Below, one piece after another: positions 1,048 through 55,900 of a DNA stretch of 64,000 bases. A program made the translations under genes and the position numbers. Source of the stretch: a virus; IMG/VR virus record IMGVR_UViG_3300029870_000003, positions 1 through 64,000 of that record; one strand, written 5' to 3'. The notes under the pieces are model-generated. The model did not search any database. It worked only from the letters and a program-made list of their open reading frames with translations, and had not been told where the DNA came from. How positions within the stretch are numbered: position 1 is the stretch's first letter; every line of letters begins with the position of its first letter.

Positions 1048-1159
1048 ATCTTATCCTCCAGATTAATTAAACGTTATGCTATCAAATCTTATGCAAAGAT
1101 TTAGCCAGCGAGCGCAATGAAAGCTTGCTTTCAAATTGCCGAGCGCAGCAAATCTTATG

Positions 1160-1167
1160 CAAAGATA
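1160..1167 (-). promoter_or_regulatory. Bacteroidetes -7 box TAtcTTTG (read on minus strand) upstream of the Rpn gene
   Basis: Plus-strand caaagata is the reverse complement of TATCTTTG; about 110 nt upstream of the ATG at 1047; a related copy lies at 1091-1100. Confidence 0.35.
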
Positions 1168-1529
1168 CGCTGAATAATTGTAACTTCCAAATTTTCAGGA
1201 AGTTTTTTTCGAAAAACATTGATTTAACAATCATGCATAAAAGAAAGAGCGTCTCCGAAATAAATCGGAAACGCTCTTCTTGATGTACACCCTTAGGGGT
1301 CGTACTTGAAATATCCTAACATAGTAAGTTTCAGCGACTTCATTCTATCATGCAAAGATAATGATAACTTTTTTATAACGCAAATTTTTTGGTACTTTTC
1401 TTTGATATTTATACGATTTAAAAATAAGGAAGGCGATTTAATAAGCTGAAAACCAATTAGTTATAAACTTTGTTGTCTTATTCTTAGTTAAAGAGTGTAT
1501 AAAAGCTTGGATATTTGTCCATGATTGTG

Positions 1530-7894: not shown

Positions 7895-8218
7895 ATGAGC
7901 AAAAAGAATATCAGACAGAATTATTTCAACAAAATCAGAAAAGTTACTGAGGACGTTGACAAGGCAGGAGAGCAAGGAAAGCATTTCCGCTGCATCATCC
8001 TCATGGGTGATGCCAACACAAAGCAAGGCTTCTCCTTCATCCACGCATCAGATGCAGACCTGCAGCAGCTTCTCCTTCATGCCATGCGCCATAGCAATGC
8101 GTTCACCTACGCAGCCGCATGCGCTTTCGAGGCATACGACAAGGAGTTAAGAGGTAAAGACAAACAAGAACAAAATAACGAGAATACAGATGAAACAGAT
8201 TCAGTTCAAGAAGCTTAG
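7895..8218 (+). CDS. Hypothetical protein (107 aa)
   Basis: ORF between dUTPase and the ATPase; 3' end overlaps the next gene. Confidence 0.3.
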   Translation: MSKKNIRQNYFNKIRKVTEDVDKAGEQGKHFRCIILMGDANTKQGFSFIHASDADLQQLLLHAMRHSNAFTYAAACAFEAYDKELRGKDKQEQNNENTDETDSVQEA

Positions 8219-10217
8219 ACTTCTCAATTTTTGCGGCATCCGCAATGCAGAGTACGAGTTTGGTGATGAACTCACCATCATCAAGGGAAAGAACGGATTG
8301 GGCAAGAGTACCATCGCAAATGCCATCCTCTACACCCTCTTCGGCAAGGACATCAACGGCAATTCGCTCGACATCAAGACGTTCGATAAAGACCACAACA
8401 TCATCAAGGAGATTCCTCATGAGGTGGAGCTTACGGTTAGAATGCTCTACACAGGTACGGAACCAGCGTTTATGAGCGAAATCGTCTTGAAGCGCACGCT
8501 GACAGATTCGTGGAAGGGCGAAGAATGCAGAAACACTTTCAAGTACTTCGTGAATGGCGAGATTTCCACCGCAAGCGATTTCAAGGACGTAGTGGATTCC
8601 ATCTGCCCAGAAGACGTTTTCCGTCTCTGCTCATCAACCCGAGATTTCGTTTGCCGCCCTTGGCAGGAGCAGCGCAACAAGTTGCAGGCACTCGTCGGCA
8701 ATATCACCACCGATGATATTGCGCAGGGCGACGAGAAGTTTGATTTCGTGGTCGAAGCCCTTAAGCAGCAGGACATCGATAAGTACGTTCATCACCTCAA
8801 GTACTCTCGCAAGGAAGTGCAGGATCAGCTTGATTCCGTGCCTATCCGCCTTGAAGAGTTGAATAAGTCACTGCCCGAAGCGCAGGATTGGGAAGCCTTG
8901 ACTACCGAGAAGGCTCAACTCAACGATAAACTTGTGTGGTATGCCAACAAGATTCAGGAGATTCGTACTGGCGGTGCCGACAAGGTGCGCCTTGATGCCA
9001 TCCGCAAGAAGATAGACTTTGCTGAGAAGCGCAAGCGTAACATGGAGCAGGGCGCATTGAACCTCTTTACCGAGGTTACAACCAAGCATCAGAGCGATGT
9101 TATTAACGCCAATACAGCCGTATTGGTCGCTCAGCGCCTTGTAGATGATTTGAAGGCAGAAATGAAGGGTCTCAACGATACCAAGATTCATGCCGGAAAG
9201 CAGAAGGAGGAGTGCGAGAAGCAGGCAAACGAAATCAATCAGAAGACGGATGAAGCGAATGCCAGCACTTGGGAGTGGAATGCTGAGGATGGCATCTGCC
9301 CGCATTGCGGTCAGCCGCTTCCTGCCGAAGACGTGGAGCGCATCAAGAAGGAATCTGAGCAGAACTTCAACAACCGCAAGGCTAACACATTGAAGAAGCT
9401 TGATGAAGACTTTGACAAGTTGCAGGAAACATACACCAACTTGAAGAAGATTCTCGAAGATGCCGACAAGGACATGCAGGACAACATGAACAACATGACT
9501 GCAGCGCAGAAGCAGTTGAAGGAAGCCGAGTTCAAGAAGCTGGAGGTGGATGCAGACAAGCCGAAGACCTACGAGCAGATTCTTGCCGAGAAGGAAGAGT
9601 ATCAGCAAGTAGTGAAGGAACTTGCCGACTTGCAGGCTGAACTCGACAAGCCATCCGAGACCAGTTCGGAAGAGACCGCCAAGATGCTCACTGAACTCGA
9701 AAAGAAGCGTGAGCCTATCGGAATCCGATACAATGAGGTGCTCGAATTGCTTGGCAAAAAGGAAGCCTTCGACCGCATCACCGCTCGCATTGCAGAGATT
9801 AATGAGGATAAGTTGACCTATCAGACTCAGCTCGATGAACTTGACGAGCAGCTTGATGTGGCAAGAGAGTACAACCAGAAGGCAGGTCAGCTTCTCGAAG
9901 ACCGAGTAAACGAGCATTTCCGCTTCGTGAAGTGGTCTATGTTCAAGACCAATCTCAAAGGCGAGCGTGAAGCCACATGCGAGTGCTATCACGATGGTGT
10001 GCCATATCGCCGACTCAACACGGCTGCAAAGGTGAATGCAGGAATCGACATTGCCTACACCTTCGCCAAGTACAACGAGATTGAGGTGCCAATGCTGCTC
10101 GACGAGTGCGAGAGTGTGAACCACCCAATTTGTCGTGGAGGTCAGCAGATCAGAATGGTAGTAACCACCGATGATGAGTTGAAGTTTGAATATCCAGCCC
10201 CTACGGTTATGGAGTAA
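8190..10217 (+). CDS. Rad50/SbcC-like SMC ATPase with CxxC zinc hook (675 aa)
   Basis: N-terminal Walker A GKNGLGKST (AAA_23-like); long coiled coil; central CPHCGQPLP hook; C-terminal Walker B/D-loop PMLLDECES. Confidence 0.7.
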   Translation: MKQIQFKKLRLLNFCGIRNAEYEFGDELTIIKGKNGLGKSTIANAILYTLFGKDINGNSLDIKTFDKDHNIIKEIPHEVELTVRMLYTGTEPAFMSEIVLKRTLTDSWKGEECRNTFKYFVNGEISTASDFKDVVDSICPEDVFRLCSSTRDFVCRPWQEQRNKLQALVGNITTDDIAQGDEKFDFVVEALKQQDIDKYVHHLKYSRKEVQDQLDSVPIRLEELNKSLPEAQDWEALTTEKAQLNDKLVWYANKIQEIRTGGADKVRLDAIRKKIDFAEKRKRNMEQGALNLFTEVTTKHQSDVINANTAVLVAQRLVDDLKAEMKGLNDTKIHAGKQKEECEKQANEINQKTDEANASTWEWNAEDGICPHCGQPLPAEDVERIKKESEQNFNNRKANTLKKLDEDFDKLQETYTNLKKILEDADKDMQDNMNNMTAAQKQLKEAEFKKLEVDADKPKTYEQILAEKEEYQQVVKELADLQAELDKPSETSSEETAKMLTELEKKREPIGIRYNEVLELLGKKEAFDRITARIAEINEDKLTYQTQLDELDEQLDVAREYNQKAGQLLEDRVNEHFRFVKWSMFKTNLKGEREATCECYHDGVPYRRLNTAAKVNAGIDIAYTFAKYNEIEVPMLLDECESVNHPICRGGQQIRMVVTTDDELKFEYPAPTVME

Positions 10218-10247
10218 ATGAAGCAGAATTTATCAAAAATATAAATC

Positions 10248-11198
10248 ATGGCAGAAACAGCAGTAGCAAAGCAGCCATCGCAGAAAGCGTTGGCGGTTAA
10301 GAATTTCCAGGCGGTAATGAACAATAGCTATTACCAAAGCCTGTTGCAGAACACTTTGAAGGACAACAAAGGCGCCTTCACCACCAGTTTGATGGAGTTG
10401 TTCACTTCCGACCCTCAGCTGATGCAGTGCAACCCTAATGCGCTCATGGGCGAGGCAGTAAAGGCAGCAGGATTGCGATTGCCTATCAACAAGCAGTTGG
10501 GGCAGGCATACATCGTGGTTTTCAAGAACAAAGATAAGGCAACCGGTCAGCTCGTTCCTACACCAACCCTTATCATCGGAACAAAAGGCTATATCAACCT
10601 TGCTCTTCGCACCAATAAGTATATCAACATCAACAAGGGAACCGTCTATGAAGGCGAGTTCCAAGGTTTCGATAAGGTGACAGGTTCACTTGACATCAGC
10701 GGAGAGAAGATTTCCGATGTTCCAGTAGGATATTTCGCATATTTCAAGCAGAAGTCTGGCTTCGAGAAGATTATGTACATGACTATTGATGATGTATGTA
10801 AGTTTGCCAAGACCTACGCTCCAACCGTCAAGTTCTCAAAGATTACTTGGCAGGAATTGAAAGAACTGGCTATCAAGCAATCCGTGGAAGGCGAAGGTGG
10901 AGGTCTAGGATGGTTTGCTGGTTTTCAGGACATGGCAGAAAAGACCGTCCTTCGTCAGCTTCTTTCCTCATGGGGCGAGCTTTCTGTTGATGCAGCGCAG
11001 GTTATCAATGCCGATGAGCGACCTTCTGCCATTCAGCAGCGTGACGAGGAGTTTGCCGAGGATAAGAAGGTAATCGTGGTTGATGCCGAGACTGGAGAGG
11101 TTAAGGAGCCAGCAAATACAGAAGGTACTCTGTCTGCAACCGCTTCCGCAGCATCCATGCCAGCCGCACCAGCATCATCACATCGTAAATTGAACTAG
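10248..11198 (+). CDS. recT: RecT-family single-strand annealing protein (316 aa)
   Basis: NPNALMGEAVKAAGLRLPINKQLGQAYIVVFKNK core, compare RecT ...MQAAQLGLEPG...AYLLPFGNK. Confidence 0.7.
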   Translation: MAETAVAKQPSQKALAVKNFQAVMNNSYYQSLLQNTLKDNKGAFTTSLMELFTSDPQLMQCNPNALMGEAVKAAGLRLPINKQLGQAYIVVFKNKDKATGQLVPTPTLIIGTKGYINLALRTNKYININKGTVYEGEFQGFDKVTGSLDISGEKISDVPVGYFAYFKQKSGFEKIMYMTIDDVCKFAKTYAPTVKFSKITWQELKELAIKQSVEGEGGGLGWFAGFQDMAEKTVLRQLLSSWGELSVDAAQVINADERPSAIQQRDEEFAEDKKVIVVDAETGEVKEPANTEGTLSATASAASMPAAPASSHRKLN

Positions 11199-49982: not shown

Positions 49983-52900
49983 TTAATTCAACTTATCCAA
50001 ATCATCCACCGCTTCCATCATGATTCTATCAATATTCTGATTGGCAAAATTAATGGATTCCGTATCAGAAGATTTATCTCTAAGCTTCTTCCACTGCTTC
50101 ATCTGCTTCTCAGCCAGTTCTATCACCCTAACCTTGGCAGCATCCTTGGAGTTCTGGAATCTGTAGTAATCAGAATAGTTACTGATTCTCTTCTCAATCG
50201 GAACGTTCTTCGATTTCAGTCTATCCACGTTCGCAATCATCTTCTCCATTTCATCCTTGTAGTTGTACCACTTACTCTTGGTTCGCTGCAAGCTACTCTG
50301 CTCGTTCGGCGTATAGAGAAGAGAGCGAATGAAAGGAATATCCTTGGTTTCCGTATCTTTGCCGTTCTTCACCAAACCGCCAACTCGCTCTACGAATGTA
50401 GCAGCACCGCCCAAATAACTTCCGTAGAAATGGTGCAGGGCAGAAGGATTCGTAACAGCATCAAGGAAATCATTACCCTTCATATCCTCGTTGCCAGCAG
50501 CAACATCGTTCGACCAGGCATTTGCCTTCTTATTCATGTTTATCATCCATTCAGGCGTTCCTCTATATGCAAGCATCCATGATGGCTGATTCTCGTCATA
50601 CTTATCGTCACGCTGAATAGGAGCACCCTTCCAGTCGCTATTGTACACCCACTCCAAGAAAGGAGCCGTAGGAGAAGGTGCCACCGCCTTGATGGTTTCC
50701 TGAGCAGGATGCTTACCAAACGAAGAATTACCGAGATAATCAGCCACAGGAACCAGCTGAGACATGCAGCCTACAGCGTCCATGAACGGATTCAGATACT
50801 TGTCAATATCCTTATTCTCCGTAAGGTTTGGCATCTTCTGGCTTGAAATATTCTTCGAGAAGGTCATGCCGGCAGCAAAGTCACCCAAGCCATAGAAAGC
50901 TCTCTCCTCAATCGCAAGCGGAATAGTAACGAACTCGCCACCACCAATATATACACATAGGTTATTTCTTCTGATATAATCAGGAAGCTCTGCGTATGGG
51001 TCCTGCACGCCCTTTCTGTCCTTCTCATCCTCATGGCTGATGACGAAGTTATTGAGGAGAGCCATAGCCATACCGCTGATAAATGGAGCACTGGCTATAT
51101 AGCCGATGGTGCCAGCTTTGTTGTTCTTGAAGTTCTTAATCAGAAGATTGGTACTCTGAATACCTGCATTGAAGAACATGGAACCATTTCTGAACCAAGC
51201 AGCAGAGAAGCCGTAGATATTCCTTCTTGCAGTCTTGCCTGTTCCCATTTCCCCATTCTTGAAAGAGTAAACGGCGTTACCCGAACCATGACGGTTAAAA
51301 TTGGTTGATACTTCCTTCGCATCATACACCGAACGGATGATAGAGCGGTTACTGTCACGACTAGCGCAATAGGTAGCGAAGCGAGCCAAATTCTCGGCAA
51401 TCTCATTGACGTTCTCCAAGTTCTTGAAGATAGCGTCATAAAAGCCCTTGCCAACCTTTTGAGTCTTCTTTCGTTCGCCTTCGATGTGCATCTTGTATCT
51501 GTCTGTCCAGTCCTTCATGTTCATAATCTGAACCCAACCAGTCTCGCCGCCGTTCTCCATAAACTCCTTGAAGTATTTCTGAACCCTGTCAGAAGTATCA
51601 AGTGTTCCGTTGCGGTATTTGGCAAACAGACCGAAGCCGCCTGTATCTCCAAAATCTTTCAGCTTGGAATTTCTGATACCTTCGATAAGACCCACCTTAG
51701 CGTAGTACTTTTCAAATCTCTTGGTATATGCAAAACCTTCCTTTGCCAAAAGGTTAGTTGATGCAAACTCAAAGTCCTTGATCATGTTTCGCATCACGAA
51801 CTCTGGGTTGAAGGAAGTGCAGAGCTGAGCCATAGCTCTTGAAATCTTGGCAGTAACTCGTCCTGCCAGAGAATCGTTCTTATGCTCCAGCAACCCATTC
51901 AACGCCTGCGCCGCTCTAGGATTTCCATTGATAATGAACGCATGGGTCCTTCCGGCAATCTTCACGTCCACGATGTGCTGCGATTTGTTCTCCGCTCTCT
52001 GGAACTTATAGCCAATCGTGCCTCTGCGGTAAACCTTCGATGCTAAGTTCTGCAATGCCTTCGCCTTCATGTCCTTGTTGAAATCAGAAACAATCTGGTT
52101 GATTTCGTCAGCAGTAGCATCCTCAGGAATATCAGGATAACGCTCATATACGATACCGGTCATAGGGTCCTTCTCATACCATACACTCGTTTCAGTAATC
52201 AGATTATTGTTCGAGTTGTTTCTTGCGAATCTCGCAAACGCCTGTCTGATGGCATTCATACCGCCGTTCTTGATAGCCCTGTTGCCCATCGCACCAATCT
52301 GCGCCAGTACGTTAGTCTCACTCAGATACTTGTGTCCTCTCGCTCTCATGATCGTGCTTCCGATGTAGCTCTTAGGGTCGCCCACCTCCGTGATATAACC
52401 ATACACATCTTCCGCCGTAGCCTCATCATACTTTCTCAAAGGCACATACCAGTTGAACATATTGGAAACATGACCGTAGAGTTCACTGCTGATGATACCA
52501 TTCTTATAGTCGCTGTCAATCGAATACTGGGTAGCAGCCTTCACCTTATCCCAATAGTCCTTCACAGCTCCCTTCTTGATGCTCTCCATCTTTGCTTCCG
52601 AATCCATCACACTCTGAATAGCCTCAGCATCATCGTAAGGGTCAGAAGATTTCGCTACCTCCTGAATAGCGTGAATACCCGAATAGTCGTGCTCGCCAGC
52701 CTCGAAGTCGGCATCAAAGTGGTTTCTGATACTCTCGTCCAACTGTCTGTAGTACTCCTTCAGGTCGATGTTGCCAGCCTTCAACTCATTGTCAAGATAC
52801 TCCTTATCGCTATAATAACTGTTTTCCAGGAAGTCAGCATCCTGCTTCTTCTTCTCGTCCCTTCTCATCTTCTTCAGGAAGTCACGAACAAAGAACACTC

Positions 52901-55900
52901 TGTTTCGCTCCAAGCCATGCTTGGTAATCATGTAGAGATTGAAGTTGCGAATCTTCTCATCATCCTTCTTTCCGTCGAAGGCATCCAGTACGTCAGCCAT
53001 CGCCTTATCCAGCGGCTTCATCACGTTGCGCTCAAACATCTGAGCCGCATCGCTCATCGCACCCTGCATGGTGTTCTGCAGCATATAAGGATTCTCAGAA
53101 GAAGCAATATCCTCAATCTTCTTGTCAGGCACAATCGCATTCATCAGTTTCTTCAATGAAAGCATATTGTCCATATAGCTCTCGGTGAACATATAACCGT
53201 GCTCATCCAGCGAACGGTGGTATCTGTCAAGTGCCGTGCCGGCAGATGGGGTGGTGCGAAGGTGAATATCACCATCTGTAGCTTCATTCCACTCACTCTT
53301 GGTAAGACTGTCCATACTGCGAACCTTGCCATCGTTGCCGTAGAACATGCCATCATGCGCCACGACAGCAGGCATACGGTCATTGTCGAGACGGTATTTC
53401 ACCGCCTCGGCTCTCATTTTCCAATAAGGATCATTCTGATTCTTCTGCAAGTTCTTGCTCAACCAGAGCAGATACTTCACATCTTTAGTATTAGGAGCAA
53501 TACGATAACCGATTTCATGAAGGAAATCAGATACCTTATTCTTGATACCATTCCAGAAGCCCGGTTCACCCTTGCCATCCTCGGCGAGTCGGGCGATACC
53601 TTCCTCAATGGCATCGTAGATATTCAGAGGATTGTACTTTCTCTCCTCATCCACCAGCTTCTTCAAAGCCGCATTCTCAGGCTTATCCAAGTCATACCAC
53701 ACATCACGAAGGAACTTGTCGAATCGTTCATCACCAAACAACTCTCTCATGCCCTTGTGTCCAACCACCTCATGCCAGATAGTCTTCTCGGCAGTATATC
53801 TATCGTGGATATTAGGCATGTAAAGATGCACATCGCCAGTCTTCTCATCATACCAACCGGTTATCTTTCTGCCTTCCTCAATAGCAGCCCTAGCCGCCTT
53901 GTTGGTGATTTCATCAACCGATGAAACCATCTTCACCTTGCCGCCAGTCTTCTGAGCCACCTTCTCCACATGGCTCTCAACCGATGAAGCAGGGTAGTTG
54001 CCATCACCGTGGTCCGTGCGGAACTTGGTGCCGCCGTCCTTGCCCCATACCTTAAAGGCATCCTTTGTCATTTTCACGTCAACGAACTTAGCCTGAGGGA
54101 ACTCCTGTTCCAGTTCAGCCATCTGCTGCAAGAACTTCTCCTTGGTTTCAGGAGCCTGTCTTCCCGATTCAACGGTAGTGATAGGAACGCCCAGTTTAGC
54201 CAACTCCCTAACCTGATTAGGAGTAACCACATTCCAAGGGATAGCCAAGCCAGTGCCCTTCAACTGCTCTGCGATACTCTCAGCCACCTCTGAATCAGGA
54301 ACCACTCTCACCGCCTTTCTCCATCGTGAAAGCATCACCTGTCTCTGTCTGTCCTTTGGCAGAAGACTGTTCACGGAACCAGAGTGCCATGGCACAAGAC
54401 CCACGGCATCCTTAGCACCTTCAGCGTGATAGCCGCTAGTCTTCTCGCTCTCAGGAATCTCCCATTCCACAACCTTGATGTTGCCTCTAGCGTAAGCACC
54501 GGTAAACTGGTCGTTCATCATAGAAGTGGAAGTGTGCATGTAAGGATTGTAGGCAGCGAGAATATCACGCTCACCAATACCTTTATTCTTGTCTGTTTTT
54601 ACGAGATTAAACTTGCCGTTCTTTACAAGGTCTGGTCGCTCGTCTGCGCCCATCCAAGCACCAATCTCGGTAGCATCGGTACGCTTTCCGTCAATGATAG
54701 CAGCCATAGGGGAGTACAACTTTCCGTCCACCTCCTGCATTCCGCTATACATTCTGAAAGTCTTCTCCTTGTTGAGGCGGTCCAGCTCGTCCTTGTCAGT
54801 AACCTTGTAGCCCTGATACTCATCCTTGAAAAGCTCATTATCGTTCTGGGAAGCAAAGTCAAACTGTTCCTTTCCGAAGTTGTCAAGAAGCTTGGTAAGA
54901 GTTCTTTCCATTTCCCCAAGCTTGTTATATTTAGGGTCTTTGCCAATCATTCGGCAGATAGCATTTATCAACTTCTGATACCACTTCTTGGCAGCAGGTA
55001 TCTTTCTCAAAGCACTACGCCATTCAGGTGAAGCAAGTTCGGTAATCATTTCTCTAGGATTCTCCAATCCGTAGTAGTCTCCCAGCTTGCCGTCTTTCTG
55101 CATCTTGATCAACTCATTGTAGATGTCAACCGCATCCTTGGCAGCCTCGATCTGCGAAGGAGAAAGCTTGTCTGTATGCCCCTTCTGATACATGGCAATA
55201 ATGTCAGAAGTAAGAGGATGCAGCATTTCGTGGCAAAGAGTAGATGCAAGATTCTGTTTTGCATAACCAGCTGCGCTGAGTCTGTCAACATTCAGCTTGA
55301 TGAAATTCTCTGAGTGTTTGTAGTAGCCCTTGGTTCTTGCCAGTTCAATGCTACCCATATAGAACTCTGTTCCAAGGCTTCGCAAACTGTTTACGATACT
55401 GTCATAGAGTTCCTTTATTTCTGGGTCAGAATTGTAGTCGTTGAAGATTCTGTCAATCGTTTCGTAAGAAACAGGCTCATCCCTCTTTAGCCCATAAGTT
55501 TCCTGAAGAGATTTCGACCTTGCGAGAATATACGCCTTAGCCCTTTCTGCTGCGGCTTTTCTGATAGAGAGTGCTTTGTAGTCGTTGAGAACATCAAGTG
55601 CTCTTCTTTCTCCGCCTCCTCCTGGCAGAGTCTTAGCTTCTCCTCCAGTTCCTTCTTGTTGTCCTTTATCTGAGGTATTGCGTCCACTACCACTTCCCTC
55701 AGAATTGATTTTTCTGAGGATGGAGTTAACAAGCTCTCCGATGTTGGCATCTTTTCTGATTCCGTACTTTGTTTCATACTCATTAATCTTCTTGGTTAAA
55801 TCGTCAATAACAGTGTTAAGACCTTCTGATAGTGTAAAGTTTTTGTTTTCATCTACTTCCCAACTATTCAGTGTCTGGTCTTTTGAATACAAGTCGATGG

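Follow-up and report, generated by a model that had tools for sequence, protein, structure and literature searches.

The question raised by this locus is whether one giant phage protein carries two metallopeptidase (MPTase) active sites and, if so, what these sites would do there. The locus lies in the IMG/VR virus record IMGVR_UViG_3300029870_000003, of which positions 1 to 64,000 were analyzed (64,000 nucleotides, hereafter the window), and consists of a single gene for a giant polyvalent protein. A preliminary description of this DNA had proposed two HExxH zincin motifs and a C-terminal P-loop for the protein. All three strings concerned, HEMLH, HEVVGH and GEMGTGKT, were found inside one minus-strand open reading frame (ORF; 49983..63977), which comprises 4664 codons and is open up to the window edge. 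The two motif strings are indeed present, with residue numbers that are off by one from those first given for both; window-relative residue numbers are used throughout. The picture that was obtained, and that is very likely correct in our judgement, is that of two paralogous zincin-like MPTase domains in a phage polyvalent protein, together with a GEMGTGKT string that is not a P-loop. The features that are needed first are listed below (aa, amino acid position; nt, nucleotide position).

49983..64000, minus strand: giant polyvalent-protein gene (ORF list with translation, Pfam, PHROGs and neighboring genes)
aa 2795-3060, nt 54798..55595, minus strand: MPTase domain A, zincin-like and gluzincin-type
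aa 2916-2920, nt 55218-55232, minus strand: HEMLH, a canonical HExxH (regular-expression scan and homolog conservation)
nt 55050..55052, minus strand: E2976, predicted third metal ligand on the "glutamate helix" (invariant alignment column E182 and model helix 180-188)
aa 3325-3530, nt 53388..54005, minus strand: MPTase domain B, zincin-like, of the HExxxH clade
aa 3402-3407, nt 53757-53774, minus strand: HEVVGH, a HExx[G/A]H variant (conservation in domain copies)
nt 53580..53603, minus strand: E3459...E3466 in EEGIARLAE (conservation, model helix 129-142 and hhalign)

Candidate metallopeptidase domains A and B

A regular-expression scan identified HEMLH as the single HExxH in the giant protein, for which 0.07 occurrences are expected by chance from the protein's own composition. 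The residues H2916, E2917, H2920 and E2976 were invariant in 13 non-redundant homologs, down to 20% identity; the alignment is shallow at these 13 sequences, and a second, word-indexed profile search added two new proteins. E2976 is located 56 residues past H2920 in an NPxE-x-x-[T/A] context (ExxT/A motif). In the structural model of domain A (pLDDT 85.9), a three-stranded sheet comes before helix 113-137 with the HEMLH motif; the invariant Glu, E2976, is borne by a later helix (180-188). On this model, H2916 and H2920 are predicted to be Zn ligands, E2917 the general base and E2976 the third ligand. H2935, which had been the first choice by eye for the third ligand, was discarded as it is not conserved.

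The second motif departs from the HExxH that it had been taken for. HEVVGH is a HExxxH with one extra residue, i.e. four residues between the histidines, and is missed by a regular-expression scan for HE..H. Conservation in domain B was followed over a much larger set of proteins. E3403, H3407, G3409, E3459 and E3466 were invariant in 28 non-redundant homologs, down to 26% identity, and H3402 was lost once among them. When 1.84 billion cluster representatives (50% identity) were searched in full with HMMER, domain B was found in 7,234 proteins at E<=1e-3, of which 1,117 reached E<=1e-30. The best 150 matches listed were almost all proteins 2,000-7,500 aa long, and 2-4 domain B copies in one protein were frequent. 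HExxxH was found in 262 of 274 domain B copies (from 210 proteins), with the residue before the second His being G (160 copies), A (94) or S (7), while eight copies were degenerate and three weak matches carried HExxH. Across approximately 280 copies, the conservation amounted to 97% for the first His, 99% for the Glu, 96% for the second His, 97% for E3459 and 93% for E3466. The eight copies without His-Glu-His (P0064, P0135, P0141, P0144, P0162, P0163, P0166 and P0178) include forms such as WRETVGH and HEVVGK and usually adjoin an intact copy; their sequences suggest occasional inactivated pseudo-peptidases.

The model of domain B (pLDDT 85.9, pTM 0.78) consists of a helix, a strand, a helix and a beta-hairpin, then the HEVVGH helix (residues 69-84 of the model) and later the helix 129-142, which contains E135 (E3459) and E142 (E3466). 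As in the domain A model, a three-stranded sheet precedes the motif helix. The predicted site consists of H3402, E3403 and H3407 with E3459 (ExxA) as third ligand, a layout that matches domain A, and the E3459 helix bears a further conserved acidic residue, E3466. The modeling thus placed both motifs within zincin-like predicted folds, each with a conserved downstream Glu, in line with what had been proposed at the outset; the His-His-Glu sets were read from conservation and the predicted helices. The ExxT and ExxA patterns at E2976 and E3459 fit the gluzincin glutamate-helix motif (E,H)xx(A,F,T,S,G) (PMC7213743), and a gluzincin ExxA glutamate helix is also seen in the crystal structure of ArdC, where H201, H205 and E229 are the ligands (PMC7213743).

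Profile-profile alignment of the two domains with hhalign gave a probability of 86% and an E-value of 5e-6. In the alignment, the G[YW]Y strands coincide, HEML-H faces HEVVGH across a gap of one residue, and the helices of E2976 and E3459 correspond to each other. Domain B is therefore a paralog of domain A into which one small residue was inserted before the second His. The two sites, whose motifs are 486 residues apart, had been described as separate; two conserved domains do exist, and by their sequence profiles they are distant paralogs rather than independent inventions. Both His-Glu-His motifs are well beyond chance as judged by conservation. As both catalytic sets are conserved, domains A and B are probably active metal-dependent hydrolases, and metal binding as well as peptidase activity are what we infer for them from sequence. 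The arrangement recurs: among 213 relatives with either domain, the order AB was found in 33, ABB in 11, BB in 55 and BBB in 4.

The assignment of the two domains to known peptidase families was addressed with profile and structure searches. Pfam and PHROGs scans of the whole giant protein and of eight sub-segments returned no peptidase family above threshold. The suggestion that the second site resembles SprT/Wss1 was not borne out: the only SprT-like match, to PF10263, belongs to domain A and is below threshold (20.6 bits, E 4e-4, with a gathering threshold of 25.6 bits), and domain B has no match to PF10263. SprT-like was matched weakly by 9 of the 13 domain A homologs, and a few matched M90, M48 or M4. 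PF18818 (MPTase-PolyVal) was unmatched at E<=10 by segments or the whole protein and was not among the top 25 families matched by the domain A homologs. Domains A and B further differ from SprT/Spartan/Wss1 and ArdC (PF10263, PF18818) in the lack of an ArdC-N domain in the giant protein. SprT/Wss1 use a nearby His as third ligand, unlike the predicted Glu about 50-56 residues downstream here. The nearest solved folds to domain A were those of anthrax lethal factor and the PPEP endopeptidases; the Certhrax and edema-factor ATLF-like domains, PPEP-2, PepO, MtfA and Spartan were listed as well. The lethal factor/ATLF-like and PPEP (M34) proteins differ in that the sequence identity is 13-18%, no Pfam ATLF match was obtained and their context is that of secreted toxins or enzymes. 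Searches with the domain A profile against PDB sequences gave nothing significant; a match to 9sfn_G ("Internal virion protein"), which spans the HExxH and Glu helices, had an E-value of 0.65 and was not significant. The domain B profile likewise found nothing significant among PDB sequences, Foldseek returned no match of the domain B model to the PDB under E 0.9, and no Pfam family matched domain B here or in its relatives, in which LPD3, ART-PolyVal, Kinase-PolyVal, MuF_C and PBECR flank the domain and never overlap it.

A counterpart of the domain B motif is found in dipeptidyl peptidase III (DPP III; M49). HEXXGH is the hallmark of M49, some members have HEXXH, and the crystal structures reveal the same zinc coordination by two His and the Glu of a downstream EEXR(K)AE(D) motif (PMC5805324). 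The HEXXGH hexapeptide is identical in type to HEVVGH, and the acidic motif, EExxAxxAE in domain B, is located approximately 50 residues downstream in both. Membership of domain B in M49 was considered for this reason and ruled out, as neither a sequence nor a fold match was found; the resemblance is thus convergent. Since M49 uses HEXXGH or HEXXH with the same coordination, the one-residue insertion is compatible with catalysis. This comparison bears on the idea that domain B has a zincin fold but is no peptidase, being instead a YbeY-like metal-dependent nuclease or a module for structure or binding in which the metal site serves stability alone. We regard this as quite improbable. The general-base Glu (99%) and the Glu-helix Glu (97%) are conserved in a catalytic gluzincin pattern, domain B is homologous to domain A with its canonical HExxH, M49 peptidases are active with exactly HEXXGH (PMC5805324), and the HEXXXH clade is classed as MPTase by Iyer et al. 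(PMC5512222).

The GEMGTGKT string and the remainder of the giant gene

The remaining features of the giant protein are the following.

aa 13-143, minus strand: DdrB-type ParB (Pfam ddrB-ParB, 2e-21)
aa about 1070-1172, minus strand: N6-adenine methyltransferase (motif IV NPPF at aa 1125)
aa 1464-2193, minus strand: Strawberry-notch (Sno)/SNF2-type helicase (Pfam AAA_34, 2e-12, and Helicase_C_4, 2.5e-25)
aa 1493-1498, nt 59484-59501, minus strand: helicase motif I, GIGKGR (motif location)
aa 1646, minus strand: helicase motif II, DESH (motif location)
aa 3057-3290, nt 54108..54809, minus strand: domain X, uncharacterized, between MPTases A and B (cross-copy conservation)
aa 4242-4249, nt 51231-51254, minus strand: GEMGTGKT, Walker-A-like and not a P-loop (non-conserved in homologs)
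aa 4326-4550, nt 50328..51002, minus strand: LPD38 domain (Pfam PF18857, 79.9 bits, 3e-22)

GEMGTGKT had been called a canonical Walker A. The string occurs exactly at the position given for it and fits GxxxxGK[ST], a pattern for which 0.26 matches are expected by chance from the composition of the protein, or one per four proteins of this size. In orthologs with 70-91% identity across the 161 aa around it, the string reads GEMGKMKT, GEMSNAKT, GEMSGMQN or GEMTGGKA, and more distant homologs have TEYDGKTD or a deletion at this position. No NTPase family was matched at E<=10 in aa 4180-4340, and the region belongs to phrog_14770, ahead of LPD38. A functional P-loop was ruled out on these grounds, because the essential Walker A Lys would not vary in this way among close orthologs, as both the Lys and the Thr do here. 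By its sequence variation, GEMGTGKT is a chance match without a nucleotide-binding role. The genuine NTP-binding motifs of the giant protein are GIGKGR and DESH in the helicase. The reverse assignment, in which GEMGTGKT is a functional P-loop and the two His-Glu-His motifs are accidents in non-enzymatic linkers, draws on the facts that short motifs do arise by chance in very long proteins and that GEMGTGKT matches GxxxxGKT perfectly. It is extremely improbable and is refuted by the conservation analysis of these sequences: the His-Glu-His motifs are invariant or nearly so over hundreds of homologs and lie in well-predicted globular domains, whereas GEMGTGKT has neither conservation in close orthologs nor an NTPase context. 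The sole strongly hydrophobic stretch in the 4664 aa, TIGYIASAPFISGMAMALL (aa 4290-4308; window 51054-51110, minus strand; mean Kyte-Doolittle 1.5), is located between GEMGTGKT and LPD38. It could belong to an ejection-protein-like tail, as a helix that is buried or inserts into a membrane.

Domain X, which separates the two peptidase domains, was recognized by conservation across copies. Copies are present in 55 further giant proteins, where their position varies. In an alignment of 56 copies, 47 columns show conservation of 90% or more; YNPYxH, NDQF and numerous Arg, Lys and Glu residues are among them. No Pfam family matched it and a sequence search against the PDB gave nothing significant. 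Domain X may be an uncharacterized enzyme or a nucleic-acid-binding module.

The domain order along the giant protein is DdrB-type ParB, N6-adenine methyltransferase, Sno/SNF2-type helicase, MPTase A, domain X, MPTase B and LPD38, and the methyltransferase and helicase motifs together constitute a DarB-like methylase-helicase pair. The C-terminal 1,300 aa (aa 3368-4660) match phrog_14770, a family of unknown function (2.5e-251, PHROGs). Residue 1 of the ORF aligns at about position 1250-1590 in relatives of 4,600-5,900 aa; among them is P0147, which shares 96% identity with the first 438 residues of the ORF and aligns with them from its position 1353. At least 1,300 N-terminal residues, possibly with further domains, thus probably lie outside the window, and as residue 1 aligns far inside the relatives, the full protein probably has approximately 6,000 aa. 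A 410-aa TTG-initiated ORF at window 56628-57860 (plus strand) is antisense within the giant gene, whose long coding frame almost certainly produced it as a shadow ORF.

ORFs adjoining the giant gene match portal, terminase, tail-fiber, RecT and SbcC-like phage families. Upstream of the structural genes, at window 8190-11198 (plus strand), a gene for an SbcC-like ATPase/recombinase is followed by one for a RecT-like annealing protein, and the two form a phage recombination module. Among GenBank phages, the region is most closely related to Bacteroides phages such as BF1-TP2 and BKO1-TP3 and to Helicobacter prophages; one of the Bacteroides phage relatives is annotated "DarB-like antirestriction". 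No close relative of the giant gene was found when the 3' 24 kb were compared with GenBank phages by megablast. The early classification as a polyvalent protein was confirmed by the ddrB-ParB, methylase, Sno helicase and LPD38 domains in one ORF and by the virion genes next to it. By the usage of Iyer, Burroughs, Anand, de Souza and Aravind (2017, J Bacteriol; PMC5512222), who list LPD38 as phage-type only, the protein is a polyvalent protein of the phage type.

In that study, no domain is commoner in polyvalent proteins than the zincin-like MPTase, of which a protein has 1-5 copies; 12 clades were published, a HEXXXH clade among them (PMC5512222). Domains A and B agree with these MPTases in their three-stranded sheet, motif helix with HEXXH or HEXXXH and putative glutamate helix, and both carry the motif on the first C-terminal helix. 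They likewise share the setting within giant, multidomain proteins of phages or conjugative elements with ParB, methylase-helicase and LPD domains, the several copies interspersed between other domains, the one-residue-longer HEXXXH variant and the proposed role in autoprocessing. In this comparison with the published description, no difference in kind was noted. The giant protein also resembles P1 DarB/DdrB, antirestriction proteins that are packaged in the head, in uniting a DdrB-type ParB with the methylase-helicase pair, and P1 DdrB has an MPTase. In P1 these are separate, smaller proteins, whereas here a single polypeptide of more than 4,664 aa includes two MPTases and an LPD38 tail.

Possible substrates of the two domains

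The giant protein would be packaged in the capsid and then injected with the DNA; indirect support comes from the virion genes that surround its gene and from the detection of an LPD38 polyvalent protein in phi24B virions. In the head or after injection, the MPTases would then release modules that act on their own, by cleaving the giant polypeptide in cis or in trans. The position of the MPTases between the ParB-methylase-helicase antirestriction module and the C-terminal LPD38 module supports such autoprocessing. Autoproteolytic release of modules was proposed by Iyer et al. with reference to P1 DdrB, which has a C-terminal MPTase and is processed before packaging (PMC5512222). Taken alone, the autoprocessing step is put forward tentatively, as conceivable rather than expected. 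Several points weigh against it. In the literature, no demonstrated peptidase activity or identified substrate was found for a polyvalent-protein MPTase, nor, since 2017, an experimental demonstration of MPTase-mediated cleavage of a polyvalent protein. ArdC, for which no substrate was identified, kept antirestriction activity as an E229A mutant (PMC7213743), and both N4 vRNAP and ArdC are transferred unprocessed (PMC5512222).

Alternatively, both MPTases might be active on host proteins and not on the giant protein, in the manner of effectors, with restriction or other defense proteins, repressors, DNA-bound proteins or cell-wall peptides as targets. Several structural neighbors are proteases directed at particular foreign or regulatory proteins (lethal factor, PPEP, IrrE/PprI, CapP, Spartan and Wss1), and the remainder of the giant protein is an anti-restriction toolkit. 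Many giants have 2-3 domain B copies, more than simple self-processing seems to need, and the authors of the phi24B study propose peptidoglycan degradation for the metallopeptidase domain of gp47. This has to be set against the lack of a known substrate for any polyvalent-protein MPTase and against the finding that ArdC left HhaI, the single restriction enzyme assayed, undegraded and that its protease site was dispensable (PMC7213743). The position of the domains between modules fits processing equally well. We see exclusive action on host proteins as possible, if rather on the unlikely side. Host-target cleavage and autoprocessing are not mutually exclusive, and the former is a live alternative to the latter. 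A more specific version, which we think unlikely, is that domain B represents a very large, structurally uncharacterized zincin family that converged on the zinc site of M49/DPP III and whose repeated copies act as specific proteases on host defense or regulatory proteins.

Implications for giant polyvalent proteins

Giant polyvalent proteins are thought to be injected with the phage DNA and to disarm host defenses, and their peptidase domains are the proposed switch for release of the individual enzymes, an idea now nine years old. The finding of two MPTases and the idea of autoprocessing mostly restate the theme of Iyer et al. 2017 in a new protein from an uncultivated gut phage. Even so, the locus provides a clean test case, with two differently built, catalytically intact-looking zincin sites between a DarB-like module and an LPD38 tail. 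The remaining interest lies in the abundant HExx[G/A]H clade, for which there is neither a Pfam model nor a solved structure, and in the equally conserved domain X between the peptidases. Metagenomes are very rich in the HExx[G/A]H domain; thousands of giant proteins would gain an annotation from its structure and a substrate. If they do act on the host, domain B proteases would constitute a new class of phage anti-defense effector.

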